DNA of 64,000 nucleotides from Cenococcum geophilum. Lineage: Eukaryota. Under the pieces are notes generated by a model. The model had not been told where the DNA came from and made no database searches. It was given only the letters and a program-made list of their open reading frames with translations. Below, in pieces: positions 35,391 through 57,409 of the stretch (its first letter is position 1; each line of letters starts with the position of its first letter). The stretch spans positions 18,352,001-18,416,000 of the forward strand of contig CP158635.1 of the NCBI GenBank assembly GCA_050273025.1. Direction: 5' to 3'. The position numbers and the translations under genes were made by a program.

Positions 35391-38300
35391 TATTACGGAC
35401 GCTTTAAGTACAATATTATAACTACTTAGAGAAGAGTCGGAAGAAGCTAGTTAGTTAATTTAGGCACGGTTTAGGATAGAGCCGATAGAGCTATATAACG
35501 AGGAATAGTAACTAAGGTTATATAATGTTGTACGTAGTATACGCAGTATATAAAGGGAATGTACGTATAATATATATAACACGTACCTTACGTATAAAGG
35601 GGATTTCTTAGGAGTACGGTTGTGTATTTAAAGGACCACAGTCCCTACCTAGATAGTTCTCTCCTTTATAGTAATTTTTAGAATATAATTAGAGTTAATC
35701 TATTAGGTAACCACTCCACTAGTTATTATTACGTTATTAACTTTTGTCTTTATATTACCTATATACCTAGTCTATTACGGAACACCCCTATAATACCTTG
35801 CACACGTCCACCTATCTCTACTAACTCAGCAATTAGAGACTAACCGCGAAATGGCAATCTAACGGCAATCTAATGGCAATTTAACGGCAATCTATGGCAT
35901 TCTGCTATATTCTGCCAAGTTCCACTAAATTCTACTAAGTTCTACTAGGACTACAACCTAAACCCTATTCTGCCTATATACGTGTTAACTAAGTAACTAA
36001 GTTAACAATATATACCCTTTCTTCCTATTTTCCTACCTTCTTTCCTTACGCAACGTCTTAACCTCCTTACACAGTTTATATACATAGCTTAATAATATCT
36101 ACCTTGCTATATATTATCGTCGCTTATACTTACTCCGTAACACTACGTTGCGTCAACTACCTATACTACCGTTAATATGCAGAACAAACCTAAAGCCCCT
36201 ATAACGGCCGCTAGTATTATATCTATACTTTAAGAATAATTAGTAGAGATATAGAAGTCTTTTATAAACGCCATTAAACAAAACTAAGCTACTTTAAATT
36301 AACAATAAGCCAAATAAAAAGCACGATACTAGTAATTAATTAAGAACCTCTAAGAAGAAGTCCGCGCCCTTAAAATACCTACACCAGAACCTTAAGACTA
36401 AACGCTATCTCTAGAGATAAATACGCGGAGCGCAAGCCCTAAACCTATAGTAGCTACTATACTAAAACGATCCAAACAACTCCTAGATCCCCTAGTATTT
36501 ACTAGTAAATAATAAAAGCTCTAATTATTTCTAAGCCAGCTTAAAAATAAGCTAACTAATAACGCTAACTATTACCTAACTAAAGCCAACTAACTCTGTT
36601 ACGCCCTAAGTTAACTAGAAGGAGATATAGCTAACCTTATTAAACCGCTTTAGCCAAACTTAGTATAAAGCCTAGTTATACTTCTTAAAGCTATATATAG
36701 TAACCTAAACCGCTAAGCTACTGCTTAAAGAAAGATAAACTATATAACTTAAGGAATAAAAAGTTTCCCAGTATACTTCTCTAAATTTAACTATTATGTA
36801 AAGGAAATAGGCTAGAACAACTCCGCACTAATTAACAGCCTTATTAAATCCTTAAGCCCCAAACTAAAAACCTCCCTAATAGGCGTAGACCTACCGGGAG
36901 CCCTTAATGCCTGCGCAAATATTATTAATAAATAATATAATAATATACTACGCCTAACACCGAAACCCACTCTATAATATAATACGGCAACCCCGCGAAT
37001 GTTTATTAAGTTATTGTCACAGCCTAAGCACCCTAACGCTATAGATATTAACACTAGGACCCTAGGGTACGCCCCACTAGGGTCCTCTAAATAAGAATAA
37101 CACATTAAGCTAGGCCTCTGCTTTAAATATAGAAGTAGCTCTTACCTCTCTAACTACTGCTCCGTCCCTATACCTAAATATAAATTACAAACGGCTAATA
37201 CTAGCAGCCGTTTACCGTATTAATCCCCCGGCTACCGTCCCTAATCTCTATCTGGTTCCAGCCCTATATCTAATAAGTACTATTTATAAAGACAAAGCTA
37301 TAGCCGACGTCCTATAAGAACCCCACCCTAATCGCCTCTAAAAGGAAGGTCCTAGAGCTAAGTCGCTCTTTAGGACGGCTCTACTATAGAATCTCATTAA
37401 ACGCATTTAACGTCATAAACTCCAACTCTTAGGACCGTAGCATAACTATTAACTGCCGTCTTCAGCAGAATAGTTAATAGGCTAATACTTAAATCCTAAT
37501 TAACACAGGAGCTAGCGGCATAGGATTTATTAATAAGATCTTTATATAAAATAATGGTTTTACCCTAACCCCCCTTAACTAGTATATTAATATATTTAGA
37601 TTTAATAGTAAACGCACCGTCTTAGGCCGTATTACCCACGTAGTATTCCTAAGACTCTAATACCTAAACTATAAAGAATTAATTAAACTTTTCGTTACCA
37701 CCCTAGGTTACTTAGTAATTTTTAAATAACCCTAGATAAAGCTATATAAGGTAACTATTAATTAGGATAACCTTAAGCTTCTATTTACCGCCTCCCGCTA
37801 TAAGTAAAAGTGCCTTATAACTTATTACTTAGACCTAAAACTAAAATCTAAGAAATCCACCACAATCTACTAGTCTAAAATTTCTATAACTGTCTACCCT
37901 ATACCTAAGAAATCTACCAGATTCTACCAACCTAGGAATTCCACTAAATTCCACTAATATAAGATTTCCACTAATGTCCACTCCACGTTTAAGAATTCTA
38001 CCGACATCCATTAAGGATCTAAAAACTCTACTAAATTCTATAAGTTATTACTAAGCACTATACCGCCCCGAGCTAAGTAAAAGCTTAAGCTCTATATACA
38101 AAAATACTAAAAGGACTAATATTCTACTATAAAAAGGATTCTTAAAGAACCCGAACCTAAATCTAATACTAACTCTATACCTAATACTAAACCTAAACCT
38201 AAATAAGAAACTATAGACAACCCAAGCAAGCTTAGTACCCTAGATATCCGCATAATTAGAGCTACCCCGCTAGCGCAACTTACTAAGAAACCCGAGTATA

Positions 38301-41300
38301 TAATCTTCGCTGTTACAACGGCTAATATTAAGAAGGCCTTAGCACTAAAGAAGCACACTAACCCTACCACGAAGGTACTAATAGAGTATTATTATCGCCT
38401 AGATATATTCTTATAAAAGGAAGCTAATAAGCTACCAAAATACCGACTATACAACTATAAGATTATACTTAAAGAAGGAAAGCAGCCCGGATTTAGACCC
38501 TTATATAAGATGTCCTAAAATAAACTCTAAGTGCTATAAAAGTATTTAAACGAGAACCTAAGTAAAGGATTTATTAGAGTAAGCTCGTCGCCTATAGCTG
38601 TATTAGTGATCTTTATTAAGAAATCTAGCGGTAGTCTACGCTTCTGTATAGACTACTAAGCTCTTAACGCTATTACCATTAAGAACTAATATCTGATCCC
38701 GTTAATATAAAAGACGCTAAACTAATTAAGTAAGGCTTGTTACTATACAAAGCTCGATATTATCTCTACATTTAACTATCTCCGCATTACAAAAGGGGAC
38801 AAATAGCTTACTGCATTTCGTACCTAATATAGACTATTTAAATACTTAGTAACACCCTTCGGCCTTACAAACGCTTTAAGCTCGTTTTAACATTATATAA
38901 ATAATACCCTACGCCCCTACCTGGATATCTTTTATACTACTTATATTAACGACATCTTAATATACAGTAATAACCTAACTAAATATTAGAAATATGTTAA
39001 CCTTATCCTATAAGCCCTATACGGAGCTAGTCTATAATTAGATATAGATAAATATAAGTTCCATAAAACGGAAGTTCTATACCTTAGACTCCTTATTTCT
39101 ATAAACGGTATATAAATAGACCTAAAGAAAGTCAAAGTAATTATAAACTGGTAAGAACCTAAGAACGTTAAAGACGTAAGAGACTTTATAGGATTTGCTA
39201 ATTTCTACTAACAGTTCATTAATAACTTCTCCGCCCTAGTTTTACCTCTTATAGCTCTAACCTAAAAGGATAAAGTTTTTATCTTTAATAAGGAATGTAA
39301 GAAGGCCTTTACCTATCTAAAGGTTATATTTACTACTGCGCCTATACTCTAACACTTTAACCTAAACTAAATAAGTGTTATAAAAGCTAACTCATCTAAC
39401 TATGTTACTAGAGGCATCCTATCTTAATATAATAAGGATAGAGTATTATACCCTATAGTATACTTCTTAAAATAACTAAGCCCAGCTAAATACAACTACG
39501 AGATCTACGATAAGAAATTGTTAGCTATTATTAGATATTTTAAACAATAGCAACCTAAACTAGAAGGCGCTAGATTTTTAATTAAGGTCCTTAGCAACTA
39601 TAAGAACCTGCAGTACTTTATAACCACAAAATAGCTAAGTTATCGTTAGGCCCGCTAGTTAGAATACCTATCTTATTTCCAATTCTTAATTATATACCGT
39701 CTAGGCGTTTAAGGTTAGAAGCCTAATACCCTAACCTAACGCTTATAAGACGCGCCAGCCCTAAAAGAAGCGCGCTCTTACTAAAATTAGACCCTACTTC
39801 GCCCTAAACTATTTAACCCTTCTACTAAAGATCTTATGGTATACGTCCTTAAAATAACTAATTAATCGATTAAATAGATTATAGTTAATAAATACCTAAA
39901 TAACAAGTTTATCTAAGAGACGCTTAAGCTAATACAAAATAGCATCAGACGCTCTAAAAAGATTTCTCTAAGTAAATGCGAAGCCTACAGAAACCGCTTA
40001 TATTACTAAAACCGTTTAGTTATCCCTAATCACAATAAGCTTAAGCTTAAACTCCTTAAACATATATACAATCTACCTATTGCCGGCCACCTAGGCTAAG
40101 GAAAGACCCTAAAACTACTCTAATAGGAGTATTATTGGCCAAACATATATAATATAACACGAAGGTATGTCTCTAGTTACTACACCTACTGACGAGCTAA
40201 AGCCTCGCATAAGACATATAACGGTCTTTTAAAGCTACTACCTATTCCAGACCAAAGATAGAAGGATATCTTAATTAATTTTATTATTAACCTTCCTAAG
40301 AGTAGAGGCTATATAAACATTATAGTAGTTATAGACCGACTATCTAAAATAAGACACTTAATCGCCTGCCCCAATATATTAACGCCTACCGTCGCCTAAC
40401 TATTCCTAGATTATATATAGAAACTCTACAAACTCCCTAAAACGATTATCTCCAATAAAGGCAGCCAGTTTATCTTAGCATTCTAGAAAAAACTAACTAC
40501 TTAACTCCATATTAAAGCACTGTTATTTACCGCGTATTACCTAAAAACGGATAGCTAAACAAAACGCGTAAATACTATAATGGAACAGTATATTCGGATA
40601 TATATGTTATATTTACAGGATAACTAGATTAACTGGCTTATATTCACTAAGTTTACAATAAATAATTCCGTCTCGGAAACTACAAAAGTCTCCCTATTCC
40701 TATCCAATTACGGCTAGCACCCATAAATAGGTTTTAACCCCTTTAATAATATTCCTCACCCCGCTTATTACACCTTATAAGTTATAGAAGCAAATAAATT
40801 TGTAGAGAAGATAGAGAAACTATAACAGTTCCTACTAATAAGATAATATATGCTTAATCTGTCTATAAAGCCGCAGCAAATAGGAAACGAACCCCAGCAC
40901 CAGCCTACTAAATTAGTAATTTCGTCTAGCTAGATATAAGAAATCTAAACACAAAACAACCTACTAAGAAACTTAATTAGAAGAACGCTGGCCCTTATAA
41001 GGTTAAAAAGGTTATCTCTCCTTATGCCTACTAACTGAAGCTCCCTAATACGGTTAAAATCCACCCTATATTCCATACGTTAGTTCTCCACCCTACTACC
41101 CCCGTATTAGACGCCCTGCCTAGACAGATATAAGACCCTCCCCTACTAGTTAAAGTAGATAGTAAGAACGAGTACTTTATTAAAAGAATTAATAATATTA
41201 AGTATAATAAACGGAAACGCCAATATATGTATCTTATAAAATGGAGAGGCTTTATTAAGTCCTTATGGGAACCCGTTAACTCTGTAGGACTTATATAAGC

Positions 41301-44300
41301 CACAGAAGACTTTTATAAACTCCACTTAGAACTACCATAGCCCCATCTCGCAGAAGCTTAAGTTTAAAGGGGGGGTACTATTACGGGACACCCCTATAAC
41401 ACCTTATACACGTCCACCTATTTCTACCGACTTAGCAATTAGAGACTAACCGTAAAATGGCAATTTAACGGCAATCTAATGGCAATCTAACGGCAATCTA
41501 CGGCATTCTGCCATATTCTGCCAAGTTCTACTAAATTCTGCTAAGTTCTGCCAGGACTATAACCTAAACCCTATTCTGCCTATGTACGTATTAACTAAGC
41601 AACCAAGTTAACAATATATACCCTTTCTTCCCGTTTTCCTACCTTCTTTCCTTACGCAACGTCTTAACCTCCTTACACAGTTTATATACATAGCTTAATA
41701 ATATCTACCTTGCTATATATTATCGTCGCTTATACTCACTCCGTGACAGCCTATTAATAAGCCCATCGTAGTCCTTACTATAAGGTTCCGTTATATAATT
41801 ACTACCTAGTTACGGTATTAAATACAGAAAAGTTAAACAATATGCCACTAAAAGCAGCCACTATAACGCCATCGACAGCGGTAACTACTTTAAGGTTAGG
41901 AGGCAATACTAGTATAGCAGATACTAACTTGCAATAACCTATAACGGTTAAATAACTATAAGAGATAGTTAACCAGTTAATAACAAATAATGCGGCGCTA
42001 AAAGAAAGGGTTAATAGAATAGGAGCAGCGAAGATTAAGCTACTATTAATTGAGAGGTACTTAGGAGAAAGATTAAAGCTTAAAGAATTCCTTACGTAAA
42101 TGTACTTTAAGGTTATACAAGAAGGAGTAAAGCTACTAATACCTATAGATCGAATAGTATACGCGGGACTATTTCTATTAGGAAGAGCACTTAAGTAGTT
42201 TAAGCCTTACCTTATGGAAATATAGGTAAATAGAATAACGACCACTAATTAGGAAGTACGATTTATATTCTTAAGCTAGGAAGGATTTACGGAATAACTT
42301 ATATATATATTTGGAAACCTAGAGGCAGTAACCACGGCGGAAAGAAAACTCTAAGATATTACGCAATAAACCTTAGTAATTAAGTATATAACGCAGTTCC
42401 AGACGCTAGCAATATAAGTTAAATAGAATAATAAGGCGCTTATAGCATAGTATAAATAGGGACTTAAGGCTAAAGTCTAGGACGTAATTATCCTAATGGA
42501 AGATGCGGATACCTTAAGGGAGTTAATAGATTAAGTAATTAAGATTAATAATTAGATCTACTAAAGGGAATAGGCTAAGAGAGGTTAGGATAAAGTTTTA
42601 TAGTTATATAAGGCGCAGAGTACGTAATAACTAAAGCTAAGTTAAAAACTATAGTATAGCGTAGAGCTAATGGACCTAAGTAGTACTAAAGAAGCCTATA
42701 AGAGATAAAGTAAAAAACTATAAAAACCTAAGGATCTAGTAATTAAGGACTAAGGAGTAAAGGCTAAGCCAGGGATCTTAGTAGCAGAAGACGTTTAGGC
42801 GGACTCTATAGTAAGAAAAATGGTTTAAAGAGGAAGCTTATATAAATTACGGAAAATAAGGTTATTACGCTAAAGACTATAGAAGTAGTTAAAGTTACTA
42901 TATAGTAAAAGGAATAAGACTAGCAGACAACGTATACGTATAGAGGGATAATAACATACTATAAGGAACAAAAGAATGTTTAATTAAAAGTTTTGCGTTT
43001 TATTATAATAACGTATACTAAATTTATAAGGACGCTAAGTATAGCGTAAGCTATTAGCTATAGGAGCTATACTTAGTAGAATATAGAGGAACTAATAAAC
43101 TAGTTCATAAATCGGATATTAAGGACGATAAATTTAACGTAGGCGAAATATTTTATAATAATAAGGTAATAAAGGTAGCTTACTAAGAGTATATAGACCT
43201 TAGAGATATTATATAAGAGGTAGAGGATAATTCCACTATAGAATAGGGAACATTAGTAGGGATTAAGACCCCGCTAGACACGATATCTATCGCTTTATAA
43301 AACGTAAGAGAAGTAGGACAGCGAGCTACTTTAGCACTTAATAAAGGTAAAAGGCCATAAACTTAAGACTCTTAAGACAAGATAAGGCAAGCTTAAGGAC
43401 CTATAACGGACAATAATCGATAGAGCAGAGTAGTAGCTTAATTTAGTAATATATAAATAAGCTCGGGACGAAGTTTCCCAAAGGCACAAGATTCTTAAGA
43501 CGAGATGAGTAAGATTTAAGACTTTTAGGACGAGATAAGAACACTAAGTAAGCCTAGTTAGACTAAGGCTGGAGCTAAACTTAAGATAGAAGCAAGTTTA
43601 GGATTAAGAATCCTATAGGACTAAGATTTTTAGACACAAATAAGGACTATTAAAGAATATAACACCAAGATTAAGAAGTAAGAAGACTTTAAGGATTTAC
43701 TTATAAGGCGAAAACCAAAGGAAACTATAGAAGAGTTTAGGTAAAGAATTATCGTATAGTAAGAATAGAAACTAAATAAGAGATTTAATATACTAGGTCG
43801 TATAAGGGACAAAGCACCTATATAAAGAATCACTAATAGGCCTAGGGTAGGTATACTAAGAGCTAAGTGGCTTATCGAACTAGAAAATAAAGAGGATTTA
43901 GGGATCTCTACTAGGTTCGAAGAACGGTATATAAAGGGCTGTTATAATATAGTAATAAGAAAATACTTCCTTACGGATAAGCTGTATACACTCTAATAGC
44001 TATACTAAAAGTGGTATAGATAACGATATAATGACGAGTAGGAAGATTTCTATATATAGTTAGATAAATAAGTTATTTAAGACCACCTAATTATAGAGAA
44101 GGCTATAACTTATATTAAAGGAGCCTTAATTATAATGTTAAAGGATCTAAAGGAATAATTAGAGGACTAAAGAAGCGAGAGGCGTATCTCCGTACCTATA
44201 AATAAAGTTATAACGTTTAGATTAGTATAATAAAGGTTTAAACTTAAAGATAAAGATAAGTTAAGAGTTAGCCTAAAGCACCTAGTATACTATACGCTAT

Positions 44301-47300
44301 TATGGATTGTATATATAGATGATATATATAAAATATATAAGAATCCAAAGGAAAAGAATTGGAAATACTTTATAAGGATATATTAGGCGCTAGATAAGCA
44401 ATAGTATAGAAATGCTAAGTATATATATAGATAGTATCTAGTAGAAGTATAAGAGTTAGGGGACCTAATACTTTAACTAGGAAGATTTCTTACGGAAGAA
44501 TGCTTAGATAAATAATAGTAGTAGGAATGCCTAGAGAATATATATTTATAGTATATAGAAGATAAAAAGCGAACTAGGTATTAGCTAAAGAACGAGCTAA
44601 GTATAATAGGATTAAGCAGCTAATAGTTAGGAAAAGTAAAGGCTTATAGAACTAGAGGGAGCTAGTAGTAGAGCCTTAAACCCTTAAAGGAATTTAAGGA
44701 TAATACCTAAATTTACGAGTTAAATAGTAAGATTAGCAGTTTAAAGCGCTAATAGATAGTAGAGTAACGCGAAACTATATCTTACTAGCAGTAGTTAAGA
44801 AAATATGATTACCTTATAGATAGAAGGAATAACCTTACCTATTAGTTATAATTTTAGGAGATCCAATAGCCTACAGGAGAGGGATTATTAATCTTAAAAT
44901 AGGACCTATTTAGATAACCATTAAAGGAAGACGAATTAAGATATCTTTTAATATCCTACTATTAGGACAGGATAAGGTAGTATTAGGAATGCCTTAGTTA
45001 TAGGAATATAATCTAAAGATTAATTGGATTATAGGTTAGGTTAATATTAAGGATACTTAATACTATAAGATATAACAATAAACTAAGTTAGTATAGTACT
45101 AAGTTAAAGCGATATATAAAGAGACTAAGCGAGGCTTAAGTTATATACTAAAGAGATACTATAAATATAGCAAGAAACTATAGAGCCTAGAAAGTAAAAA
45201 GCTGTTAGACTATATAGTATAGGATTATAAAATAGAATTAAAACTAGAAATAAGTCTAAGGTTCTTTTTAACCTATAAGCTTACTAAAGAGGAAGGTAGA
45301 GTATTAAAAGAGTTTATCTAGGAAAACTTATAAAAGGGATATATTAGACTATCGCAGTTATTAGCGGGTTATCTAGTACTATTTATATTAAAGAAAAATA
45401 GTAAACTAAGGCTGTGTATCGACTATAGATAGTTAAACAGTATTACTAGGAAGGATAGGTATCATTTACCCTTAATTAGCGAAATCTAAGATTGGATAGG
45501 TAATGCGTAAATCTTTATAAAGATAGATCTAAGATAGGCGTACTATTAAATTAGAATTAAGGAAGGCGATAAATAGAAAGCAGCTTTTAAATTAAAGGAA
45601 GGGCTATATAAACTATTAGTTATGCAATTTGGGCTTATAAACGCACTAGTAATATTCTAGAAGCGTATTAATAATATATTAGGAGAATACTTGGATAAGT
45701 TTATTATAGTATACTTTAATAATATTATTATCTACTTAATAACTGAGGAAGAATACGAGAAATACGTTAAATAGGTTTTAGAGAGACTATAAAAAGAACA
45801 GATGCTAGTAGTAATTAAAAAATGCGAGTTCTTTACTAGAAAAACCAATTTTGTTAGATTTATTATTAAACTAGGCCAACTTAGTATAGATCTAAAAAAG
45901 ATTAAGGCTATAGTAAATTAGTAAGAACTAGAGAACGTTACGCAGTTAAGATTGTTTTTAGGGTTTTGCAATTACTACAGAAGGTTTATAGTATAATGGT
46001 TAAAGAATATTAAACCATTTACGCGGCTAACAAAAAAAGAAGAACTATAGGTATAGGGAAAGGAACAGTAAGAATTATTTAAGAAAGTTAAGGAATTATT
46101 TACCTAGGAGCTAGTTCTTAAGATCTATTAACTAGGACTAGAGATAGTTATAGAAATAGACGTATTAGACTTTATATTAGGGGCGTGCTTTATATAAAAA
46201 TATTAAGATAGATAGCACCTAGTGGCATACTATAGTTGAAAGATAACACTACTAAAGTTAAACTATGATATTTATAACAAGGAGTTATTAGGTATAGTTA
46301 CAGTACTAAAGAAATAAAGAGCATTCTTACAAGGTACGGAAAAACTATTTATAGTTAAGATGGATTATAAGAACCTAATAGGATTCCTAATAATAAAGGA
46401 ACTTAACTAAAGATAGGTTAAATAGGCAGAGATACTTACAGAATAATATTTTAAGATTTAGTATACTAAGGGAACAGACAATATATAAGCAGACGCTCTA
46501 AGTTAAAAAGCTAAACTACAGAATAATAAAAGCTATTAAGGGCTTTACTGTAAAAAGACATAGATCGATTAATTAGGTATAATCACGTAAAGATTATAGT
46601 AACTTAAGAAGATAACGAACTAGAAAGAGTCTATAAGATACTAGAAAGCTTTTAGGTATAAAGGATCTTTAAAGTATAGCTAGAAGAATAGTTAGAATAT
46701 CTAGGAGAGGAGATATTATATAAGCATAGAGAGGCAAAATATATCCTAAGAAGTATAGTAGAGCATTTTATAGAAGATTTCTATAAGGGAATAACTTAAG
46801 GATATAACGGAGCAATAGGCTTAGTATTAAGACTCTAGAAGGAATATATTATTAATAGAATCTAAAATATCGCAAGAAAAGTAATAAAGGAGTGTCTAGA
46901 TTGCTAAAGAAATAAACTAATAAGGTATAAGCTATATAGAGGGCTATAACCTATTAAAATACCAGAGAGACTATAGGAGGTTATATTATAGGACTTTATT
47001 ATTAAGTTACTAAGGTTAAGGGACCCTATTACCAGATAAGATTATAATATAATCTTAATAATAGTAGACAAGCTTATAAAGTGGGGCTATTTTATAGCAT
47101 ATATAGAAGAAATATTAGTAGAAGATATTGCTAGAATCTATATTAAAGAAGTGTTTATAAGATATAAAGCACTAAGTAAAATTATATTAGATAGAGATCT
47201 AAGATTTATAATAGTATTCTGGGAAGTATTTTTAGTAAAGTAAGGAGTTAGAGCAGCAACTTTTACCGCATATTATTCGCAGATAGACGGTTAAACGGAA

Positions 47301-47378
47301 AGGTTAAATTAGACGCTAGAATAGTATCTAAGATATTATATTAATTACGCGTAGAATAATTAGGTATTACTATTACTA
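35391..47378 (+). mobile_element. Ty3/Gypsy LTR retrotransposon A2, 5' part (LTR, gag, protease, RT, RNase H, most of integrase)
   Basis: 5' LTR 35391-35772 + 41749-41795 (split by E); gag ATG at 41842; collinear with the reverse complement of A1; breaks abruptly at ...TATTACTA (47378); left TSD GTTTA 35386-35390. Confidence 0.95.
35773..41748 (+). mobile_element. Ty3/Gypsy LTR retrotransposon E (RIPed), inserted in the 5' LTR of A2
   Basis: 370-bp LTRs 35773-36142 and 41379-41748; polypurine tract AAAGGGGGGG before the 3' LTR; RT YINDIL at ~38942; chromodomain-like YLIKWRG at ~41230; TSD degenerate (GTCTA/GCCTA-like). Confidence 0.95.
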
Positions 47379-47918
47379 CTAGAATCTTGTTATTGGGGAG
47401 GACGCAGCCGGATTTAGAGGTTCCTCCCCCCCGTTTTAGGAGGCTGTTTCTCCTTACTTAGACCTATATTTATCGCCGCTTTTATAATATACTAAGCATG
47501 CTAAGGACGGCAGGGTCTTCCTTACTTACCTACTAAACCTAAAAGCTCCCTAAACGTCCCTTGGCGGCTAACGTTATTTAAAAAGCTATAGACGTCTACC
47601 GCCTACTTTTATCCTTATCCTTTTCTAAAAGCACTACCCTTATATAACGAAACCTCCCTTCTATACTACGCTCCTTTAACCCTTTTCCTACAGTAGCTAT
47701 ATATGCATTTTCCCCTATTATTATATTGTTTACTTCTAATACTTAATTTCTAGGTTTCTACCTATAGGGTTTTTTTGCCCTATTCCGCTCTTAAGAACGC
47801 CGATCTTCTATAGAGCCTTTTTTAGCGTTCCTATTAATAGCAGTCGCTCTTAAGCTAGCTTCTATATATAGGCAACTAGTAGCTGCTAAGGTACTAAAAT
47901 ACTACGCGTTTAACTACT

Positions 47919-50440
47919 ATACCTTCTTAAAGTAAGAAATGGCGAAATATAGATCTAGTCTTTAGCTTAGACTCTAAACTAGGTAAGCCGTCTTATTCTA
48001 AGCCAGCTTCGGACTTAAATTTAAGCTTTAACTCTAGAGCTAGGGAAGACGCTAATTCTAAGGGGGAATATTTGTAGTAGAGAATTGCGTATTATAAGGA
48101 CTAAAGAAGGGCAAAGTTAAAACAGAAGCCCTGCTCTACTTCTCTTATTAAATATAAGTTTTAGAATTAGAAAAAGTTCGTTTATATTTAAACTAAAATT
48201 TACCTTGTAATACTAACGATTTGTATTTAGGTTCTACCTAAAAGTTAAGTCTAACCCAATTAAGGCCCTTTATTAGTATATAGCTAATATATTTAAAATA
48301 TACCTTAAATAGCGCGTAAAGAATTCTTAAATTAAGAAGGAAAGTATAATCTAGGCGTACTAAAGACGAATACTATATAAATTTATAAATATAGCAGGCT
48401 ATAGTATAAATAATAGTGCAGAATTTAATATACAAGATATAGGTAATCTTTAATTTTTAAAAAAAAAATCCTAGCTAATTTGTTATAGTGGATCCTAACC
48501 TACTTAACTCTAATATATAAGCTAGATACGTTAAAGAAAGAAAAGGATATAATATATATGCAGGACTTATATATAATTATTAATACCTATTAGATAACGG
48601 ATATAAAGCCTTACTATAGTTGTTTTCAAGTGCAGATAGGAGTAATCCTCCTCCTCTTTAGTGCTACGGCAATAAGACCCTAAGCTCTTATTAAAAGTTT
48701 AAGCGCGAGAGGCTCTAATAAAGCGCTTTTATATAAATATATTATAATCCTAAAAGTTTATAATATAAAAAACTTCAATTAAACTATAACTGTTACCCTT
48801 GTAAGTCTTATATATATTAAGAATTCTAAAGGTATAGGTAGATGGTATATAGCGACGTTAATTAAAGATAGCGCGAATGGTGTTAATAGACCTATAGTAA
48901 GAGGTTTATTTTCCGTCTTAAAAGCATCTTAGCTTTTTATATTCTATCCTATCTTATAAGCCTTACTATTACGGATAATATATTTTAACGCCATTACACT
49001 TTACCAAAGAAGATTTTTAGACTTAAAATCCTAGCAAAAAAAAAAAGTCTTAAAGTAAAGTTTAAGAAGGAGATAGAGAAACGACCCATCTTTTAAGATA
49101 TTAAGATAATGGCTAGTTATAGGGGAGTGTTAGACACTAAAGCGTTCCCTTACCAGAAATGCCGTAATTACTATATATAGTTAGGCCGAATGGCTAGGTT
49201 TAAATAATTACTTAAACTTTACTAGCTACGATAAGCGTTTAAAAGGAAATTAAATAGTAAGTATCTAATTTAATATAAATATATATATTAACTAAGTTTT
49301 CTAGGCGCCCTTACTTTAAAAGAGCAAAATTAGATAATAGGTTATTACGGCGATACCTACTAACGGTTTTATTTACCTAATTTAATTAAGTGTAATTTCT
49401 AGTTAATCTACTTTAGGACTCTATTATAGGATAACCTTATCTAATATACCGCGTAGATAGGGATCTTAAGGAATAAGCGGGCCCCTATAGGTCTAACTAA
49501 TAAGCAAAAGCTTAAATTCTAGCTAGAACTTAATTAACACCCTAATATTTTATAGCTTTATAGGAAATAGGAGCAATATAAGTAAAAGATTAAAAGCTAG
49601 GAATATTACCCTATTAATACCATAAAGGGAATAAAACTATATAACCGTTATAATAAAGCCAGATATAAACTTTATAGTATTATAAATATCCTACGTAAAT
49701 AAAAAGAGGACTAGGTTATTTTTAATTTTTATAACGCCATTAATAATTATAATATTAAAAGATAGCTTAGTAGTAGCGTTAGGATGGAAATTCCTACCCG
49801 TTTAGCTATATAGTATAAATTTTATAAACATACTGCTATTACTAAACTACTATCTTAGGCGCTAAATAAGCTTAAAGAAGGACACGCTATAAAACTCCGT
49901 ATAAAGTTTATCCGTAATCTTATTAAGTATTATAATTAATAAAAGAGTTAGCAGAATAGGATTCTAAGCAAGGCTATTAGATTTTAACTTAGGTCTAAAG
50001 TAGATTAAAGTATAATAGGCGTAAAAAGAGGTATAAGTAACGCTAATACTAGTACCTATTAATAGGTAAAGCAGTAAAAAGAATAGATTAGCTTAGACTT
50101 ACCTTTCTAAGAAAACCTAGATAAGACGTAGAGCGCGGTCCTAATTAAGGAAGAGGGTGTTAAGATAATATAGCTATTATATCCTATAACGTTTACTAAT
50201 CTTATTTATTTTATCTATATCGGTAATAACTAACTCTTAACGCTAAGGTAGACCCGCCTATTTACGAAAAAGGATATACTATAGAAGTATTTTAATAATC
50301 ACGTTATAGAAGGAGTGTTTAGGTAGGGGTTCTACTATAAGCATCCTTATTACTTAGAGTAGATTAAAGGACTTAAGTATTTTAAAAATTACGTAGCCCT
50401 TATACATGGCGTATAGCATCTAATTAAGAGGTACCACTAG
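47919..50440 (+). pseudogene. RIP-inactivated DUF3435 tyrosine recombinase (Starship captain type)
   Basis: De-RIPed by eye: acidic N-terminus, FKxYLxWRVKNSxIKKES, LLLFxATAxRP (catalytic R), HIKNS-like, FIFRLE, LYQLRR, MMGH, YxRFY, FQSIYFG, RAPxGL and C-terminal CxHPxC...HFKNHxxxxHG finger; introns at ~48176-48230, ~48440-48488, ~48845-48897, ~49257-49304. Start ATG appears as ATA. Confidence 0.88.
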
Positions 50441-50699
50441 GTAAGTCGCCTTACCTATATAAGAATCTTATACTAACCCTCTAGTACCTATAGAAAGGTA
50501 TATAACTGGTAAATTTAGAACTATACGTTCTTTATATATGGGACCTTTTCCTAGTTATTACGCGCTTATCTTATTATTCTTTACCATTTTTTATTTTATT
50601 TTAATCTATTATTATCTAATCCTATTCTAGTATTTAGTAGAATAGATATAATAACTAAGATTTTATAATTCGTTTAGTTACCTATTAGTTAGTTAGTTA

Positions 50700-52235
50700 G
50701 GGTTAATTATACTAGATATTTAGTTAGCTTTTACCTAAAAGCCTCTATTATAGGCAGCTGTAAGTATAGGAGATTAGGTATATATAATCGCTTTATAGAC
50801 TTTAAACTTTAGCCCCTAGTATATAAGTTTTAAGTTGCTATATTTCTTACTTTTTATAAACTATGCTAAGCTAAGCAAAGCATTTTTAAATAATATGTTT
50901 TATTAGTTTTCTTTCCTAGTTCTAGTTTTAACTGCGTTTTAAGTAATATTTAAGGGTATAATTTAGTATTAAACAGGACAATTAAGAATAAGAACTTTGC
51001 TTTATTAAATATGGCTTTAAAGCCTCTATATATATATTAAGAAGTCATTATTAGCTTTATCTAATCTGTAACGGATTTAGTTAATTAGTTAGAGCTTTAA
51101 ATATTAGTCGCTTAACTACGGACTAATATAACTTCTAAAGTTTTAGGTTAATATTTAGCTTATATATATGCTAAGCATTTTCCGCTACCCCTTTAACCGG
51201 ATAAAGCCAGTTATATAACTAGAAAACCCTACTATCTATATTTAGTAAAAGTAATATCCGCGCTTTTTATAGATTATTTACTATAATGGTAACTTAGACT
51301 ACTAAAAGCGGTAAACCCTTCGCTAAAACCTTAGCAATACTAATACTAAAAAGGGCCTTTCTTAACTTAAGGAAAGAGCGTAAAAATATATTAGGAATCC
51401 CCCCACTACTAGCCTATAGAATAACTTTAACGCTTAATCTATTGCACTATATTTAATAGCGCTAGCTTCTAACCCACTACGTAATAAAACCCACGCCTAT
51501 AAAAATTAAAAAGTGCTTAGTAGCGTTAATACCTATTTAAACCTTCTCTACTATCTACTTTAGATATTTAAACTCCTTTATCTAATCTTTAGAGATTATA
51601 GTATAGCAGATTTTAGAGTTAAGAGTTAATTTAATTGCGATATAGTTAGTATTTAAACCAATAATATAAATACGCTATTGTAATATTAATTAATAATTTT
51701 TAAAATTAGTCTTTTACTTACCCCTTTATTAACGTTAAAAAGTTATTTAGTTAAAACACTTTCCTTAAAATTAACTTAGCTAGTAAATGTATTATAGAAA
51801 TAGAAAAAATCCAGGTCCTATATCTAGCTATTAAATTCCTTTACTAATCTACTATAGTTAAGCAATTCCCTATACTAGGCTTCTCTATCCTATATATTAA
51901 GTTTAAGGGTAGATTTACGACTTAAAGCTATATATAGGATTTCGGATATTTTGTTAAGCAATAGGGATATTTAATTAGAATTAATAAATAGCCTAAAAGG
52001 GGAGAACTAGGCGCTACTAGTATATCTAAAAAGATAAAGGTATTAGCAGCCCCATCTTAGTATAGAGAGGTGCGGTTTTTACTTACCTAAAAGTTAAGTG
52101 TAGTTAATAGTAATAAGGTCTTTATAAGATAGGATTGATAATCCTTAGGAGTCTATTATATATATAAAAGACTTAATTAGCCGAAACCGGCGCCCTTAAT
52201 GCCGTATTATAAATAGTAAGATATAGGTTGCGGTA
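50700..52235 (-). pseudogene. RIPed unidentified intron-containing gene, 3' part, convergent with the captain
   Basis: Two minus-strand GTAAGT...TAG introns (52086-52026 with GCTAAT branch site; 51721-51675). Product not recognised; ends approximate. Confidence 0.5.
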
Positions 52236-52240
52236 TAAAC

Positions 52241-54043
52241 TGTAACGGAACCTTATAGCAAGGACTATAATAGGCTCGTTAATGGGCTAGGTATATAGGT
52301 AATGTAAAGATAAAAGTTAACAACGTAATAATAACTGGTGGAGTAGTTGCCTAACAGATTAACTCTAATTATATTCTAAGAATTACTATAAAGGAGAGAA
52401 CTATCTAGGTAGGGACTGTGGTCCTTTAAATATACAACTATAATCCTAAGAAATCCCCTTTATATATAAGGTACGTGTTATACGTGTTATATATACATTC
52501 CCTTTATACACTATATACACTATGTATAACGTTATATAACCTTAGTTACTATTCCTTATTATATAGCTCTATCGGCTCTATTTTAGACCGTGCCTAAATT
52601 AACTAACTAGCTTCTTTCGACTCTTCTCTAAGTAGTCGTAATATTATACTTAAAGCGTCTATAATACTATCTCCCTTCTCTTTATCTTTATCTTTAAAGA
52701 TTCCTAATATCTCTAAGTCGTTTATTAGAGGTATAATGTCCATCTAATTAATTTAGTTAATATTATTACTTATAATACCTAAAGTCCTTTCTTTTTCGTA
52801 AGCGCAACGTCGTGCTTATACGGTTGCTGCGATATTATCTCTTAATAAGATTATGCCGTCTCTATATTCTCGCTGTTTAAAAAAGGGGTTAGTTTATATT
52901 ATATTGGCAAGCCCTTCCTCCTAGTAACCCTCTTCTTGTTTAGAGTGTACTAAAGTAAATATTTATTTGTCCTATAACGTTTACTCTATCTCTAATATTA
53001 AATATATACAACCTATTATCCTTAATAGCCGTCTAGTTCCCTAATTAATTTATCTTAGGGTTTTGTGTTTAATTAGCTGCTATAAAGCTTAATAGTAAGC
53101 TGTCTTAAGCTCTTACTAATTTAGAATATTCTTAGGACGTAGAGTAGAAGGCCTTAAAGGCTTATATTACGGCATCCGCTTAGCTACTCCATCTTAAAAA
53201 GGTTTATAAAAAGGTCCGTTTTAAAGAGTAGAAGCTTATAGAATAAGGTTTACAGGAACTTAGTAATAAAAAAACGAATTCTCTTTTAATAAAGAAGGAA
53301 ATAGATCTAAGTAGTTTAGTAACTGATTTTCTTAGGTCCCCCTTAGGTAACTCATTTTTTAATAATTCTTTTTTATTAATATTGCCTAACCTAATCTCTT
53401 CTAATACTCCTATATCTTTCTTATAGCATTTTTTTTAAATTTTCTAATAGTTCCTAGGTAGTCTTATTATAGCCTATTTACTTAACCTCGTACTATATTT
53501 TATCGTCAATATTCTTATAACTAATAATCTTTAAAACTTACTATTTATCTTCTTCCTATCCTCTATATATATCTGCTTTATAAACTAGTGGCTTAATATT
53601 CCTATATACTGGCTCTAGCATTATAATGTATTATATAGGGTAGATCTTTATCTTAGCTAATAAGTTTAACTTAAACGTAATTAGTGAAATTCTTTATATA
53701 ATTTTAAAAGGTCTTAGTTTAACGTAGTCCAACTTCTTACTTAGTCGTTAACTTTTAAAATTTTTATATAGTAACTATATTTTATCTCCCTCCTTAAAAT
53801 CTAGTCCCTTAGATCTCTTAGCGTTATAGTACTTTTTTATTCTCTTTTATACCTTCTTTACTAATTCCATAAGGTCTATATAAAGATTTATTAATATCTT
53901 TATTCTTTCTTTAGCTATATTACTTATTTTCTTTGCTTACCGTAGTAATAATAATGTTCTTGGTTTATATCCGTAATTTGCCTTAAATAGTAATATATAT
54001 ATTCCTTCTTACGGTGTTGCGTTATATATAAATTATATAACTA
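52241..54043 (-). mobile_element. Ty3/Gypsy A2, inverted 3' part (integrase end, 3' region, 3' LTR 52241-52666)
   Basis: Resumes on the minus strand exactly where the 5' part stops; LTR carries A2-specific variants (GGGACTGTGGTCC, AAGGAGAGAAC) absent from A1 LTRs; flank TAAAC 52236-52240 is the reverse complement of TSD GTTTA. Confidence 0.95.
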
Positions 54044-54044
54044 G

Positions 54045-54426
54045 TTATATTTCAATAATTTAATTTCGCGATGCAGATGCAAACAACTTAAATTCACGTG
54101 ATGTTCTAACTTAATCAGGAAGGAACTAAACTCAATCAATGGGGGTGGGGTCTATAATTAAATAGTCGAGGGTGGGCACGTGCACACGCAGTCTTCGACA
54201 GACTTCGGCAGAATTCGATGAAGTGGCAGAACTTGGCAGAATTCGCTTCAAGCGGTTTTCATCTATCGAGCGTTTCACCGAGACATTTCATTGGCAGAAC
54301 TCGGCAGAATTCGATCGAGTTGGCAGAATTCGGTAGAATTCGGCAGAATTCGACTAAAGCGTCGGTTTTCATCTGTCGAGTGTTTCACCGAGACATTCTT
54401 ACTGTGACTGGGCTAGTTCCGTTACA
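54045..54426 (-). repeat. UnRIPed LTR remnant related to the B-family LTR
   Basis: Minus strand starts TGTAACGGAACTAGCCCAGTCACAGTAAGAATGTC, matching B LTR starts (1475, 34340); GAATTCTGCC-type decamer repeats; internal duplication with 110-bp offset (54256/54366). Similarity to B is lost left of ~54150, so the left boundary is inferred. Confidence 0.8.
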
Positions 54427-54590
54427 CTGCCCTATAATCTGCTTCTAAAGTGATTATTATATTTTTATTGAAGGAGAGTCCACCTTTAGATGATTAATGA
54501 CCATGACAAGGCTATGCTCGAATATATGAAACTCTGTGGAAAACCAGAGCGGGGCATACGCTGCAAATGCTCTCGAAAAAGAAAAAATAA

Positions 54591-55269
54591 GGGGTCGTTC
54601 GGTTGCAAATGAGCTCAAGATCATAATCTGTTCGATCTGTGCGCCTTTTAGTGTCGCCCGTTTCGTAATTAGTGGCGGCTACTACCGTGGCTCAGTTGAA
54701 TCTGTAATTGAGTCGACCGTTCGGTAAACCTCCAGATTGGTAGGCGATTTGAGTGACCCCCTCTGCCACTAGGCCTCTATCGCGACTCCCTGCTTTGGTG
54801 TAGTATGGAGCCTCCTCCACGGCCAACACCCTCTCGCCGGTCGATCTTTTCTACACCTGCGCCAACCTCCCGTACGAGCCGCAGTACGAACCCCCCCCCC
54901 CCGGAAATAAGCTCATCGTGATCACGAAGGTTAAGATAATGACAACATAAAATAAGGCTTACAACTGCGACAGCAGTATCACAACTGGGGCGTGTGGAGT
55001 CGCCATATCATAAGAATTCGTCACTTTGGCATGTATGCGAAAGCTCCGGGGTCAATATGGAATATATAGAACGTATTGAAGCGGTGCCAAGAGCCTCATT
55101 TCAACTACTGTATACGGTATAGCTTGCAAATTTGCTGCGCTTACCAATATGGAGGAGCTCCATATTCAAAAGTCGTCAGATCTACCGAACAACAGCCTCA
55201 TATTCAGATTTGAGCTCCAGATCAGTTACATTATGGAGCCTCAATATGAAGTTGCAACCGAACGATCCC
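54591..55269. mobile_element. PIF/Harbinger-type non-autonomous element (MITE), 679 bp
   Basis: Terminal inverted repeats GGGGTCGTTCGGTTGCAA / TTGCAACCGAACGATCCC (17/18) flanked by TAA on both sides (54588-54590, 55270-55272). Confidence 0.75.
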
Positions 55270-55607
55270 TAATCCGGACACCATCAAATCCGAATATTAT
55301 CCACTTCGAAGCTTCTGAGAGGTCCTAAAGAGGATATCCAAGGATGCCACACCCTTATCTGAAACATGTCAAGCCCGAGGTGGTGACTTGCAATCGTAGA
55401 TGGTCGATCGGTAAGAGTAGTCGAAGATTTGCGAACGGGAAGGAGGGTTGGGTGTTGGAGTGAACGAGTGGCAAAACGGCGCCGATCAAACAGTCTGTAT
55501 GGCAATTTGACCCTGTGCATCGAGTTGTGGGGTAAAGCGAGAAGGCGAAAGATGACGATCGCAGCAGCTCACAAGGGCCCACCCTGACACGCTACTTACG
55601 GCACCTA

Positions 55608-56130
55608 CTCGTGGCACCCACTAGTAAGCAGCGCTTACTAGTGGTCCCGGGCTCAATGCAACAACCGAGCTCAATGCAACTTTTATATTTGTATGGCGTC
55701 TCATACAAAATCGACCTTTTTCCAAGTTGAATAACTTAACAATACTACATAGAAATTATATAAGAATTTAAAGGCTTATATATAATCCTTTAAAAATCAA
55801 TAATATAACTTATTTAAAGCTGATATTTATTGTATTTATTGTATTTCTATACTTTTTATTATTATATTTTATTTAAGGCCAGTAAATACTAAAACTTCTA
55901 TAAAATAGAAAATTAATATTAAAATTAAGTTTCTTTATACTTATTTAGGTATAAAAAAAAGAAGTATATATATTTAATAATTTATTATAGCGTTGTTGTT
56001 GAGTTATTCAACTTGGAAAAAGGTTGATTTTGTATGAGACGCCATACAAATATAAAAGTTGCATTGAGCTCGGTTGTTGCATTGAGCCTGGGACCACTAG
56101 TAAGCGCTGCTTACTAGTGGGTGCCACGAG
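55608..56130. mobile_element. Tc1/mariner-type MITE, 523 bp, ~135-bp TIRs
   Basis: Near-perfect long inverted repeats starting CTCGTGGCACCCACTAGTAAGC; TA on both flanks (55606-55607, 56131-56132); AT-rich non-coding core. Confidence 0.93.
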
Positions 56131-57409
56131 TACGGCGTAGCTGCTTCGTGCAGCGCAGCTACTCCACAGTTCCCCCGCTGATGGATTGAAGCTTGTCTGC
56201 AGTGAACGGCAAGGCCGGAAGCTGGAGCTACCATGCAAGTGTACCTCACACTCTAGCGCACATATTCGATTATTAAAACCGATCCCATAGCTAGCAGAGA
56301 CGCTCTGCTATTTTCGTCCCTCGTCTGTCCGGGCTCCGAGGCGTGTTAGTGTTTGGCCCAAGATGGTGTGATAACGTCCGATAAGCTGTCCAAGCGCTGG
56401 CTCTACAGTCTTGGTCGACGCCGAACGGCTACGGAGAAGATTGCATTGGTGTGCATTTTGCCCAAAATAAAGGCTAGCAGTTGGACTCGGGACGAAAGAA
56501 GAGGGCTGATGGCTGCATGCGCTGTGCCTTATTCGCACTGACCCCCTCGCCCATTCACTTGGCTTGGCCAACCGAGCGTTCCGCGCAAAGCCACTGGCCC
56601 ACTGATAACTGGGGTGAGGGCGAGCTTCCAGCATGGCGCTGTTCGAATCGATGAGGGCGGGGACCAAACAGAGGCATTCCCTCGTTGCCATCTGTACCAC
56701 CACTCCCACCATTCCCGCGACCTTTCTTCCTCTCCAAAATGCTGCCCATTATCGTCCATCCATACCAGAAGCCATAGCGATTCTTGCGCTGTCCGGCCTT
56801 GATCTCATTGTGCATCTTTATTGTAATTCGCTATCTGCTATCAACTGTTAGCCCTTTGGTCCAGATTCCCAATTATCATCTGCCGATCCTCCAGCGCGGC
56901 GTTGAAACACTTGATGCAAAGCCCGAAACTGTTCATCCAGGTACGAGACCATGCATCATTGTCACAGAAGATTGCCACTCATGCTCACGAATTGCTCTTT
57001 CAAGGCTCGTTACGTCTTCGCCCGTAATATTGTGGCACTTCAGCTGCATCATCACACCTCTATTCACCCACTCTAGTCTTTAACGACTCTACATCCGCAC
57101 AATCGCTACTGCAGCCACCCGCGGACTATTACCCTCTGATACCATTACATGAAACGGCCCTCCTGTGCTATTCACAATCCACAGCCTCCTACGCGGTTTT
57201 GAGCCCACTAGGTTGGCTTTGAGGTTTGCAGATTTTATGCTTTACCTTGGTTATGATGCGGCAAGCGCCCAAGCACTGAGGCAGTGAAGTGCTGAAGCAC
57301 CAAAACTCACTCGTGCCCCACCATCGTTCGACCCATCTCACACAAACTCTCGTCCGTTCGCCACGATTCTGGCCCCCGAAATACCTAGATCTCACAAATA
57401 TCGGTCGTC

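Follow-up and report, generated by a model that had tools for sequence, protein, structure and literature searches.

Breakpoints and junctions of the inversion

In Cenococcum geophilum, a dead fungal retrotransposon, here called Gypsy A2, is split at two points of the 64-kb stretch of DNA that was analysed (the window), and the locus raises the question of which process produced the inversion that divides it. An earlier note on this DNA proposed that the captain of a Starship had joined one end of its element to a TTAC(N7)A target inside the element's own retrotransposon passenger. The features of Gypsy A2, its junctions and its right-hand flank are listed below in positions of the window.

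9326..9352, plus strand: site in the paralog Gypsy A1 that has stayed unbroken, ..CTATATAACTAGTAATAATAA.., taken as proxy for the intact or empty state
35386..35390: first copy of the A2 target-site duplication, GTTTA (plus strand) or TAAAC (element sense)
35391..47376, minus strand: Gypsy A2 3' portion, internal region to 47376
35391-35777, minus strand: Gypsy A2 3' LTR
about 35772-41748: nested LTR element inside the 3' portion
47375..47378: ACTA, 4-bp crossover microhomology of the left junction, read directly; the cut is written between 47376 and 47377
52236..52240: second copy of the target-site duplication, TAAAC
52241..54043, plus strand: Gypsy A2 5' portion, with the 5' LTR at 52241-52666 and then internal sequence
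54035..54050: right junction, a 16-bp perfect palindrome, ATATAACTAGTTATAT, composed of the ATATAACTA of A2 (54035-43) and the inverted copy of the flank (54042-50), with ACTA at 54040-43
54044..56283: non-RIP but repeated flank, holding tandem LTR-like units (54165-54432) and a foldback (55606-56132)
from about 56284: single-copy genes

Self-BLAST of the window matches the minus strand from 47378 to 43660 with Gypsy A1 9345-13045, and the plus strand 52233-53993 with Gypsy A1 1499-3275. Read at base level, the minus strand of Gypsy A1 runs ...TATTAC and directly on into TAGTTATATAG..., and TTAC-TAGTTAT-A is intact there, as the earlier note had it. From 47370 the left junction reads CTATTAC followed by TACTAGAATC; the minus strand of the right junction reads GAAATATAAC followed by TAGTTATATAATTT. 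When A2 was rebuilt by flipping and aligned with A1 (after removal of the nested element of A1), 656 of 800 columns were identical, and none of the 11 gap columns fell within ~100 bp of the join. The two halves, cut between 47376 and 47377 and between 54043 and 54044, thus rejoin base-perfectly against the paralog with nothing lost and nothing gained, which bears out the observation that A2 stops at ~47376-47378 and resumes without loss on the minus strand at ~54043. Both junctions carry the same 4 bp, ACTA (47375-47378 and 54040-54043), in line with the ~4-5 bp of homology suggested for a clean reciprocal inversion.

Other marks of a single divided element were confirmed as well. The A2 LTRs, said to share variants specific to A2, are 89.7% alike and 78-80% alike to either A1 LTR (self-BLAST), and the 5-bp target duplication reads TAAAC in element sense on both flanks: 35386-35390 (GTTTA) adjoins the end of the minus-strand LTR, and 52236-52240 (TAAAC) the start of the plus-strand LTR. 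The reciprocal junction does coincide with a RIP/non-RIP boundary, the RIP substrate index being 0.25-0.33 over 53400-53999 and at least 0.92 from 54000. In the assembly the inversion is genuine, and its two junctions are reciprocal to the base. That an assembler flipped the segment is most improbable: the region is a dense repeat nest, and among the matches listed none of the reads or contigs was seen to bridge a junction, but the breakpoints share 4 bp only, rather than a long inverted repeat, which could mislead an assembler, and both junctions are exact and reciprocal.

Flipping ~47377-54043 restores A2, as had been proposed. It is not a unique history, however, since flipping 51222-54043 instead is equally clean and leaves A2 with a nested 3.8-kb insertion.

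A candidate DUF3435 element at one breakpoint

The DNA between the left junction and the 5' portion of A2 holds a candidate mobile element, here called S, with the following features.

47377..51221, plus strand: element S, a RIP-mutated DUF3435 unit of ~3.84 kb with putative ends; its 5' end is the inversion breakpoint, and candidates for its 3' end are 51120-51148, 51221, or a point beyond 51250
48030..50431, plus strand: captain-type tyrosine recombinase pseudogene, start near 48030 extrapolated; homology blocks at 48232-48438, 48489-48842 and 48899-50431, in three frames and with many stop codons
51126..51140, plus strand: ATATAACTTCTAAAG, 12/15 like the reconstructed 5' junction, within the interval of a 20-fold drop in depth
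51211..51222, plus strand: TTATATAACTAG, identical to 54033-54044
51213-51221, plus strand: ATATAACTA, core of TTATATAACTAG, candidate for both the direct repeat and the attachment core of S
51222..52235, plus strand: spacer Z, RIP-like and low-copy, between S and the A2 5' LTR

A frame read through its stop codons matches DUF3435 (Pfam PF11917) at E = 8.5e-19. The recombinase has 168 homologs at E <= 0.001, the top matches being DUF3435 proteins, and its best intact relative (P0001) matches the family at 2.6e-74, covering positions 2-392 of the 418 in the profile. DUF3435 is the sole Pfam match of S and its intact relatives; a search for GCR1_C found none in the six frames of S (E <= 0.01) and none in 10 relatives. 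By its sequence, the local copy of S is a RIP-killed pseudogene, and the enzyme would therefore have come from the time before RIP or from another copy. The match to the intact relative begins at 48232 with residue 68 of that protein, hence the extrapolated start near 48030. The gene reads inward and lies just inside the breakpoint, as the earlier note recognized, at ~650 bp from 47377 by this start rather than the ~540 bp given there. That 47377 is a terminus is argued solely from the direct repeat.

Copy number and length can be gauged from word depth. In all four runs (X1, X5, X6 and X9, from three studies besides the possible source), the summed word depth of 47604-51075 was 60-240 times that of the adjacent genes at 56284-58000, a measure that is not a copy number and is read solely as 'many copies'. 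The core of S is many-copy in this genome. Depth falls 20-fold, from 11,980 at 51119 to 553 at 51149, which gives a repeated unit of about 3.5-3.9 kb and places the main drop ~80 bp ahead of the 9-mer ATATAACTA. Paralogous contigs, ~8-9% divergent, are colinear beyond 51221, to 51226 in X5 and to 51250 in X9; together with the early drop in depth, they mean that the 3' end of S may differ or that the unit may be longer. The placing of the termini at 47377 and 51221 is thus an inference. No terminal inverted repeats (TIRs) were found: when the 120 nt at the 5' end were aligned locally, in inverted sense, with three candidates for the 3' end, the scores were no better than those of shuffles. Spacer Z matches no Pfam family, and a second version of it in X1 (18 differences in 242 nt) indicates that it is not strictly single-copy.

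These measurements bear on the larger element that had been proposed, in which a giant Starship of the Hephaestus kind would have its 5' terminus at 47377 and run through Z, A2 and beyond, with A2 as its passenger and its captain joining that end to an internal TTAC(N7)A. The site in A2 fits the published Hephaestus consensus TTAC(N7)A (PMC10104507), the second version of Z and some colinear paralogous contigs allow a longer, low-copy unit, and the Serenity and Prometheus families are described from TE-rich or AT-rich DNA (PMC11162782). Against this, the captain region is many-copy, with a sharp 20-fold depth drop at 51119-51149, whereas Starships are expected to be low-copy (PMC11162782); ~1 kb separates A2 from the likely 3' end of S; and the window to the left of A2 consists throughout of nested LTR retrotransposon sequence, in which no cargo genes were seen. 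The motif itself occurs 289 times in the 64-kb window, the other site involved, as reconstructed, reads TAAC(N7)C, and there is no Hephaestus among the 25 of 37 C. geophilum captain genes whose family was read from the survey tables (PMC11162782). A giant Starship is accordingly highly doubtful, and neither its passenger nor its target motif could be upheld; S looks like a small (~3.8 kb) many-copy DUF3435 element instead.

A motif shared by the proposed sites of exchange

Three sites have ATATAACTA in common: the reconstructed 5' junction, 51213-51221 and the A2 breakpoint. There are nine occurrences on both strands of the 64 kb, of which three are at the two junctions and the 3' end of S, and one is the paralogous site of Gypsy A1. 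The 12-mer TTATATAACTAG is found in the window at 51211 and 54033 only. Of the two motifs, ATATAACTA and not TTAC(N7)A is the shared sequence that matters. In a post hoc comparison with 20,000 random pairs of cuts, drawn to share a 4-bp inverted microhomology, direct identity of at least 9 bp within +-14 bp was found in 1.5% of pairs, and of at least 8 bp in 4.7%. The window holds 23 matches to the junction 15-mer at up to 3 mismatches, about as many as the 21.7 expected by chance.

How the inversion may have arisen

Two processes compete to explain these observations. At a probability of roughly 0.5, the inversion is the work of a recombinase of the S family, which exchanged strands in cis between one end of S and a target-like site, inside the shared ACTA core of ATATAACTA. 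The event could have followed either of two histories. In history 1, S would have integrated at ..GAA[ATATAACTA]GAAAACC.. beside A2, creating a 9-bp direct repeat, and its 5' junction would then have recombined with the A2 site, flipping 47377-54043; this exchange would use ACTA only, and is possible in inverted sense because the A2 core, ACTAGT, is palindromic. In history 2, S would have integrated into A2 itself between TTAC and TAG, becoming flanked by ACTA (Gypsy A1 serving as proxy for the empty site), and its 3' junction would have recombined with an inverted ATATAACTA site 2.8 kb away, flipping 51222-54043. Inversion is the standard outcome for two recombinase sites in inverted orientation. 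The two histories appear equally parsimonious: each has an element end at a breakpoint, and in each one of the two steps relies on 4 bp of identity only. If the proposed termini of S are right, one breakpoint is an end of S and the other its target motif.

The other process is break repair: after a pair of double-strand breaks, or through a template switch during replication, the DNA would have been rejoined in inverted order by way of ACTA or, in a variant, of the 9-10 bp of inverted identity in history 2. The proximity of the DUF3435 element and the shared motif would then be due to chance or to the simplification of sequence by RIP. RIPed DNA has a low complexity, and the frequencies of identity near random cuts and of the junction 15-mer are compatible with this reading, as is the death of the local S copy; history 2 would also turn the left junction into a plain nested insertion and leave a single coincidence, the breakpoint at the 3' end of S. 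The junctions themselves point the other way. Both are perfect, with neither deletion nor filler, whereas the inversions unlinked to transposons that are described from Chlamydomonas mutation-accumulation lines lacked homology and several carried short deletions (PMC9977147). An S end lies at a breakpoint in either history, and TTATATAACTAG is common only to the A2 site and the 3' junction of S. Base-exact reciprocity with ACTA at both junctions, and with no loss or gain, is the signature of conservative site-specific exchange. We therefore favour recombinase action, and consider break repair less likely. A recombinase joining an element end to a target-like site in cis, in keeping with the earlier note, is the best explanation and has a published precedent among Cryptons (PMC9977147); an internal TTAC(N7)A site of a Starship is not supported.

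Significance

To our knowledge, the one experimental record of a transposon recombinase acting on chromosomes in this way concerns a Crypton in an alga. If the link of the inversion to an element end and a target-like site holds, this locus would provide evidence from nature that DUF3435 recombinases, besides moving their own element, remodel the chromosomes of fungi. Had break repair made the inversion, the locus would be an ordinary rearrangement in a repeat nest. A wider reading is more tentative, and we hold it with less than even confidence: S may belong to the Starship (DUF3435) superfamily as a bounded element of Crypton size that carries no cargo, amplified to very many copies in a RIP-active, TE-bloated ectomycorrhizal genome, which targets ATATAACTA-like sites and whose recombinase also rearranges host DNA between an element end and target-like sites in cis. 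On this reading the locus would be the counterpart, in nature and in a fungus, of the inversions that a Crypton drives in Chlamydomonas, and would show directly that solo captains can move by themselves. The starfish survey reports about 10,000 solo captain genes and about 560 bounded Starships, discards all candidates below 15 kb and leaves lone transposition open (PMC11162782). A many-copy unit consisting of a captain alone, with a target motif and with ends that can be defined, would settle part of the question of solo captains and would blur the line between Cryptons and Starships.

Comparison with known systems

Inversions between a copy of CryptonF-1_cRei and target sites in cis are described from mutation-accumulation lines of Chlamydomonas reinhardtii (PMC9977147). 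Both cases have a tyrosine recombinase transposon at one breakpoint, a copy of a short target or terminal motif at the other, and clean junctions. The algal events, as described there, involve a CryptonF in a green alga and the motif CAYCG, and were observed as they arose. The present case is of DUF3435 type in a RIP-active ascomycete, with the motif ATATAACTA/ACTA, and is an old fossil deduced from a single assembly.

For Starships, a circular intermediate and recombination at short cores have been proposed or shown, and many of them, though not all, have TIRs. S resembles Starships such as Hephaestus in having a DUF3435 gene near one putative end that reads inward, and candidate short direct repeats that would reflect a match between terminus and target, as the direct repeats of Starships and Cryptons are described to do (PMC10104507, PMC13465315). 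It differs in its size of ~3.8 kb without cargo, the elements of the starfish survey measuring 15-511 kb (PMC11162782). Moreover, S is many-copy where Starships are few, and no TIR was found in it.

In the literature, DUF3435 denotes the Starship clade, distinct from Cryptons. The CryptonF elements of fungi are described as multi-copy, a few kb long, with a single recombinase gene, no TIRs and short terminal direct repeats that serve as recombination substrates (Goodwin 2003; Kojima and Jurka 2011, PMC3212892). S is likewise a few kb long and multi-copy, with one recombinase gene and no TIR found. Its repeat would measure 9 bp in history 1 and 4 bp (ACTA) in history 2, compared with 4-6 bp in CryptonF, whose proteins combine a tyrosine recombinase with GCR1_C, whereas S and its intact relatives match DUF3435 only.

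For C. geophilum, the starfish survey lists 37 solo captain genes and no bounded element; the 25 genes whose family was read from Table S4 comprise 15 Prometheus (fam05), 6 Serenity (fam04), 3 Phoenix (fam01) and 1 Enterprise (fam06), with Hephaestus being fam02 (PMC11162782). Those captains and S are alike as DUF3435 genes without an assignable cargo element. They differ in that the survey leaves the movement of lone captains open, whereas this locus offers a candidate for a bounded, captain-only unit.

Genomic setting and base-level structure of the inversion

The window is AT-rich (GC 26-38%) up to ~54.0 kb and gene-like (45-54%) beyond. Self-comparison and Pfam scans resolve 1497-34683 as a nest of LTR retrotransposons, and ordinary genes lie towards the right edge.

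Main neighbouring features
1497-15493: Gypsy A1, with target duplication AGAAA and a nested LTR element at 3282-9297
15494-34683: element B, with LTRs at 15494-15811 and 34366-34683 and matches to RT, RNase H and integrase
18611-24868 and 26734-33657: LTR elements nested inside element B
57.4-63.3 kb: genes for a dual-specificity phosphatase, DNA polymerase delta subunit 4 and DcpS

At 15489-15494 no base separates the AGAAA duplication of A1 from the 5' LTR of element B, which means that A1 inserted exactly at the edge of B, or the reverse. The left edge of the window (30-318) is a tandem array of an 81-bp unit, with at least three copies that are 80-87% alike. On the other side, at 54165-54432, two tandem ~95-bp units that are not RIPed resemble, in reverse orientation, the start of the element B LTR (15495-15653, 34334-34504) and may be a short repeat of LTR origin spared by RIP. 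Further right, a foldback at 55606-56132 consists of two 137-nt arms (98% complementary) separated by a 253-nt spacer, part of which has 14.5% GC amid otherwise non-RIP DNA. Summed depth over it is raised in all four sequencing runs, and a MITE-like or foldback element would fit.

The second Gypsy copy, A2, a paralog of A1, is split between 35391-47376 and 52241-54043. In the self-comparison, the minus strand of 47378-41748 pairs with A1 9345-15117, and the plus strand of 52233-53993 with A1 1499-3275. The uninterrupted site in A1 reads ..TATTATTATTAC TAGTTATATAG.. on the minus strand; the left junction is ..TATTACTATTAC|TACTAGAATCTTG and the right junction, in minus-strand reading, GAAATATAAC|TAGTTATATAATTT. 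Base-by-base comparison of A1 with both junctions shows an exact Gypsy sequence when 47376 is followed by the reverse complement of 54043, bearing out the proposal of the earlier note that a flip rebuilds A2 without loss. The rebuilt A2 aligns with A1 (nested element removed) at 656 identities in 800 columns, with 11 gap columns, none of them within ~100 bp of the join. Two further observations of that note also hold: the target duplication, TAAAC in element sense, flanks A2 on both sides (35386-35390, as GTTTA on the plus strand, and 52236-52240), and the two LTRs share an A2-specific likeness, being 89.7% alike and only 78-80% like those of A1.

The short homology described at the breakpoints amounts to ACTA, present at 47375-47378 and 54040-54043, and since these bases are common to both junctions the exchange was conservative within the four. 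The right junction was also correctly placed at a RIP/non-RIP boundary, the RIP substrate index jumping from 0.25-0.33 to at least 0.92 within 54000-54199. A single-stranded hairpin at this palindromic junction (54035-54050) is not unusual (z = -1.19). That the strand change is a misassembly is very improbable, four shared bases being too few to mislead an assembler; among the contigs listed none spans 47376|47377 or 54043|54044 and none has a strand-changing joint, which is uninformative either way.

The recombinase gene

Next to the left junction lies S, a RIP-mutated unit with candidate termini at 47377 and ~51221. A frame from 47378, with stops read through as X, matches DUF3435 in Pfam at E = 8.5e-19, and six frames of 47377-52240 contain no other Pfam family. 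A word-indexed protein search with the RIPed frame returned no relatives; a full HMMER search with the recombinase frame returned 168 at E <= 0.001, and in each of the ten scanned DUF3435 is the sole domain. The closest named relative is a hypothetical protein of Cenococcum geophilum, with 77% identity over short stretches; this one hit suggests that species or a near relation as the origin of the window. To map the gene, the best intact relative (P0001, 738 aa, Coniosporium apollinis) was aligned by tblastn.

tblastn blocks of P0001
Residues 68-136: 48232-48438
Residues 137-254: 48489-48842
Residues 256-692: 48899-50257

The three blocks lie in three frames, separated by ~50-nt gaps that could be two introns or frameshifts. 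This layout indicates a pseudogene at roughly 48030-50430. A DUF3435 gene does lie inside one breakpoint, as had been reported. By domain content (DUF3435, without GCR1_C) S is grouped with Starship captains.

Size, copy number and ends of S

Outside data were Logan contigs of four runs: X1, a possible source run, and X5, X6 and X9 from three other studies. X9 is without cover at 51510-51943 and runs X13-X20 contribute only small shares; neither was counted as evidence.

Summed word depth
Genes, 56284-58000: X1 71-96; X5, X6 and X9 4-7
S core, 47604-51075: X1 6,986-16,978; X5, X6 and X9 403-1,081

The S core therefore stands at 60-240 times the depth of the genes in all four runs, sums that are not copy numbers and are read only as many copies. 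Point depth in X1 is 11,980 at 51119, drops to 553 by 51149 and to 387 by 51196, and an exact contig is at depth 74 by 51340. Published counts fit: five 'Crypton-F' families, with 1,079 copies, are tabulated in the supplement to the C. geophilum genome paper (PMC12910237), and for this species the starfish survey predicts 106 YR gene pieces, counts 37 captains and has no bounded elements (PMC11162782). Depth and the sharp drop, together with these counts, indicate that the DUF3435 unit behaves as a small multi-copy transposon of ~3.5-3.9 kb rather than a low-copy giant. No cargo was seen, the spacer 51222-52235 being without a Pfam match and everything left of A2 being LTR element sequence. 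This small, multi-copy, cargo-free behaviour speaks against the Starship proposed in the earlier note.

Paralogous contigs, 8-9% divergent, run colinear past 51221, to 51226 in X5 and 51250 in X9, and X1 holds a second version of the spacer with 18 differences in 242 nt. Both speak against a clean small unit, and 51221 is a candidate 3' end. The spacer is RIP-like throughout (substrate index 0.17-0.40) though its exact contigs are at single-copy depth. Both X1 and X6 contain the second version, which is ~7% divergent. In X6 one of its contigs ends at 52239, where A2 is inserted, which would suit either a paralog or an allele lacking A2.

Comparison with shuffles found no terminal inverted repeats or other terminal similarity of S; one direct match was reached by 10 of 500 shuffles and is internal in position. 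A GC-rich inverted repeat, GGGGAGGA..(19 nt)..TCCTCCCC, lies at 47394-47432, 17 nt inside the 5' end, in a stretch largely spared by RIP (45% GC), and might bind a protein or have a structural role at the end of the element. One X1 contig at single-copy depth joins S-like sequence up to 47776 to 55123 with 23 letters between, which may represent another locus where both repeat families are adjacent. A RIP-tolerant pattern from the 5' region of S had no match in a metagenome scan. When the non-RIPed family fragment P0004 was the query, the metagenome scan found a single weak relative, encoded on a 25-kb contig (L001 6001-6147, 35% over 49 residues).

A motif shared by the breakpoints and the candidate 3' end

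With the inversion undone, the old 5' junction of S reads ..ATTGAAATATAACTA|CTAGAATCTTG. At 51211-51222, close to the 3' end suggested by depth, the sequence is TTATATAACTAG and continues as AAAACCC; the A2 breakpoint site reads AAATTATATAACTAGTAATAG on the other strand. Their common core, ATATAACTA, has nine occurrences in the window, both strands counted: the two junctions and the 3' end of S account for three, and the paralogous site in A1 for one. The 12-mer TTATATAACTAG is found within the window only at 51211 and 54033. Direct identity of at least 9 bp within ±14 bp was seen in 1.5% of 20,000 random cut pairs with 4-bp inverted microhomology. A weaker copy of the junction motif, ATATAACTTCTAAAG (12/15), lies at 51126-51140, within the 30-bp interval of the depth drop; across the window, matches with three mismatches are at chance level (23 found, 21.7 expected).

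We also considered that S had sat in another Gypsy-A copy, making the inversion Gypsy-Gypsy recombination. The flank, non-RIP repeated DNA from 54044, does not resemble Gypsy A: equally good scores were reached by 183 and 133 of 200 shuffles, and with transition-tolerant scoring by 19 and 10 of 200. The motif sharing is thus not hidden homology.

Mechanism of the inversion

We put at about 50% the probability that a family recombinase produced the inversion by acting in cis on an S junction and a target-like site. Such an exchange would explain the base-perfect reciprocity, the breakpoint positions and the motif. Microhomology-mediated break repair is a less probable source. In its favour, RIPed DNA is simple in sequence, the motif statistics are post hoc and the S termini are only candidates; against it, inversions unlinked to transposons in Chlamydomonas are described with breakpoints lacking homology, several with short deletions (PMC9977147).

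Exchange by a giant Hephaestus-like Starship between its own end and an internal TTAC(N7)A site is unlikely. TTAC(N7)A is a genuine published consensus, but it is present 289 times in the window and the partner site is TAAC(N7)C. Furthermore, of the 37 C. geophilum captains, the 25 examined for family comprise 15 Prometheus, 6 Serenity, 3 Phoenix, 1 Enterprise and no Hephaestus.

Two histories can be drawn. In the first, which follows the earlier geometry, S would integrate at GAA[ATATAACTA]GAAAACC, beside 54044; its 5' junction would later exchange with the A2 site, flipping 47377-54043. All three 9-mers would beforehand be in direct orientation, for which a recombinase would predict excision, not inversion. 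The exchange would instead align ACTA alone, in opposite sense, which is possible because the A2 core ACTAGT is a palindrome. In the second, S would integrate into A2 at TTAC|TAG, flanked by ACTA, with A1 as the uninterrupted counterpart; the 3' junction of S would then exchange with the inverted ATATAACTA site 2.8 kb away, over 9-10 bp of identity, and 51222-54043 would flip, the textbook outcome for inverted sites. Insertion of S in A2 parallel to its sense strand was ruled out by reasoning, as it needs more than one inversion. The two histories are equally parsimonious, each with one integration and one inversion and one step on four bases only, and in both an S end is a breakpoint and a target-like motif its partner.

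Comparison with Cryptons and Starships

The literature searched contains no account of a DUF3435 element that is both small and present in many copies, nor of any Starship in Cenococcum, and in the C. geophilum genome paper 'Starship' is confined to the reference list (PMC12910237). The starfish paper does not settle whether 'solo' captains can move by themselves, and it drops candidates <15 kb (PMC11162782); one preprint describes DUF3435 repeats initially annotated as Cryptons and then reclassified. S resembles Cryptons in size, copy number and absence of cargo, and Starship captains in having DUF3435 and no GCR1_C. For both groups, short direct repeats have been taken as DNA matching between terminus and target (the Goodwin model for Cryptons, the Urquhart data for Starships) and, by analogy, the motif pattern of S is what these would predict. 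A direct precedent for the proposed recombinase action at the A2/S junctions is provided by Chlamydomonas mutation-accumulation lines, in which the inversions reported have a CryptonF-1_cRei copy on one side and an independent CAYCG target site on the other (PMC9977147).
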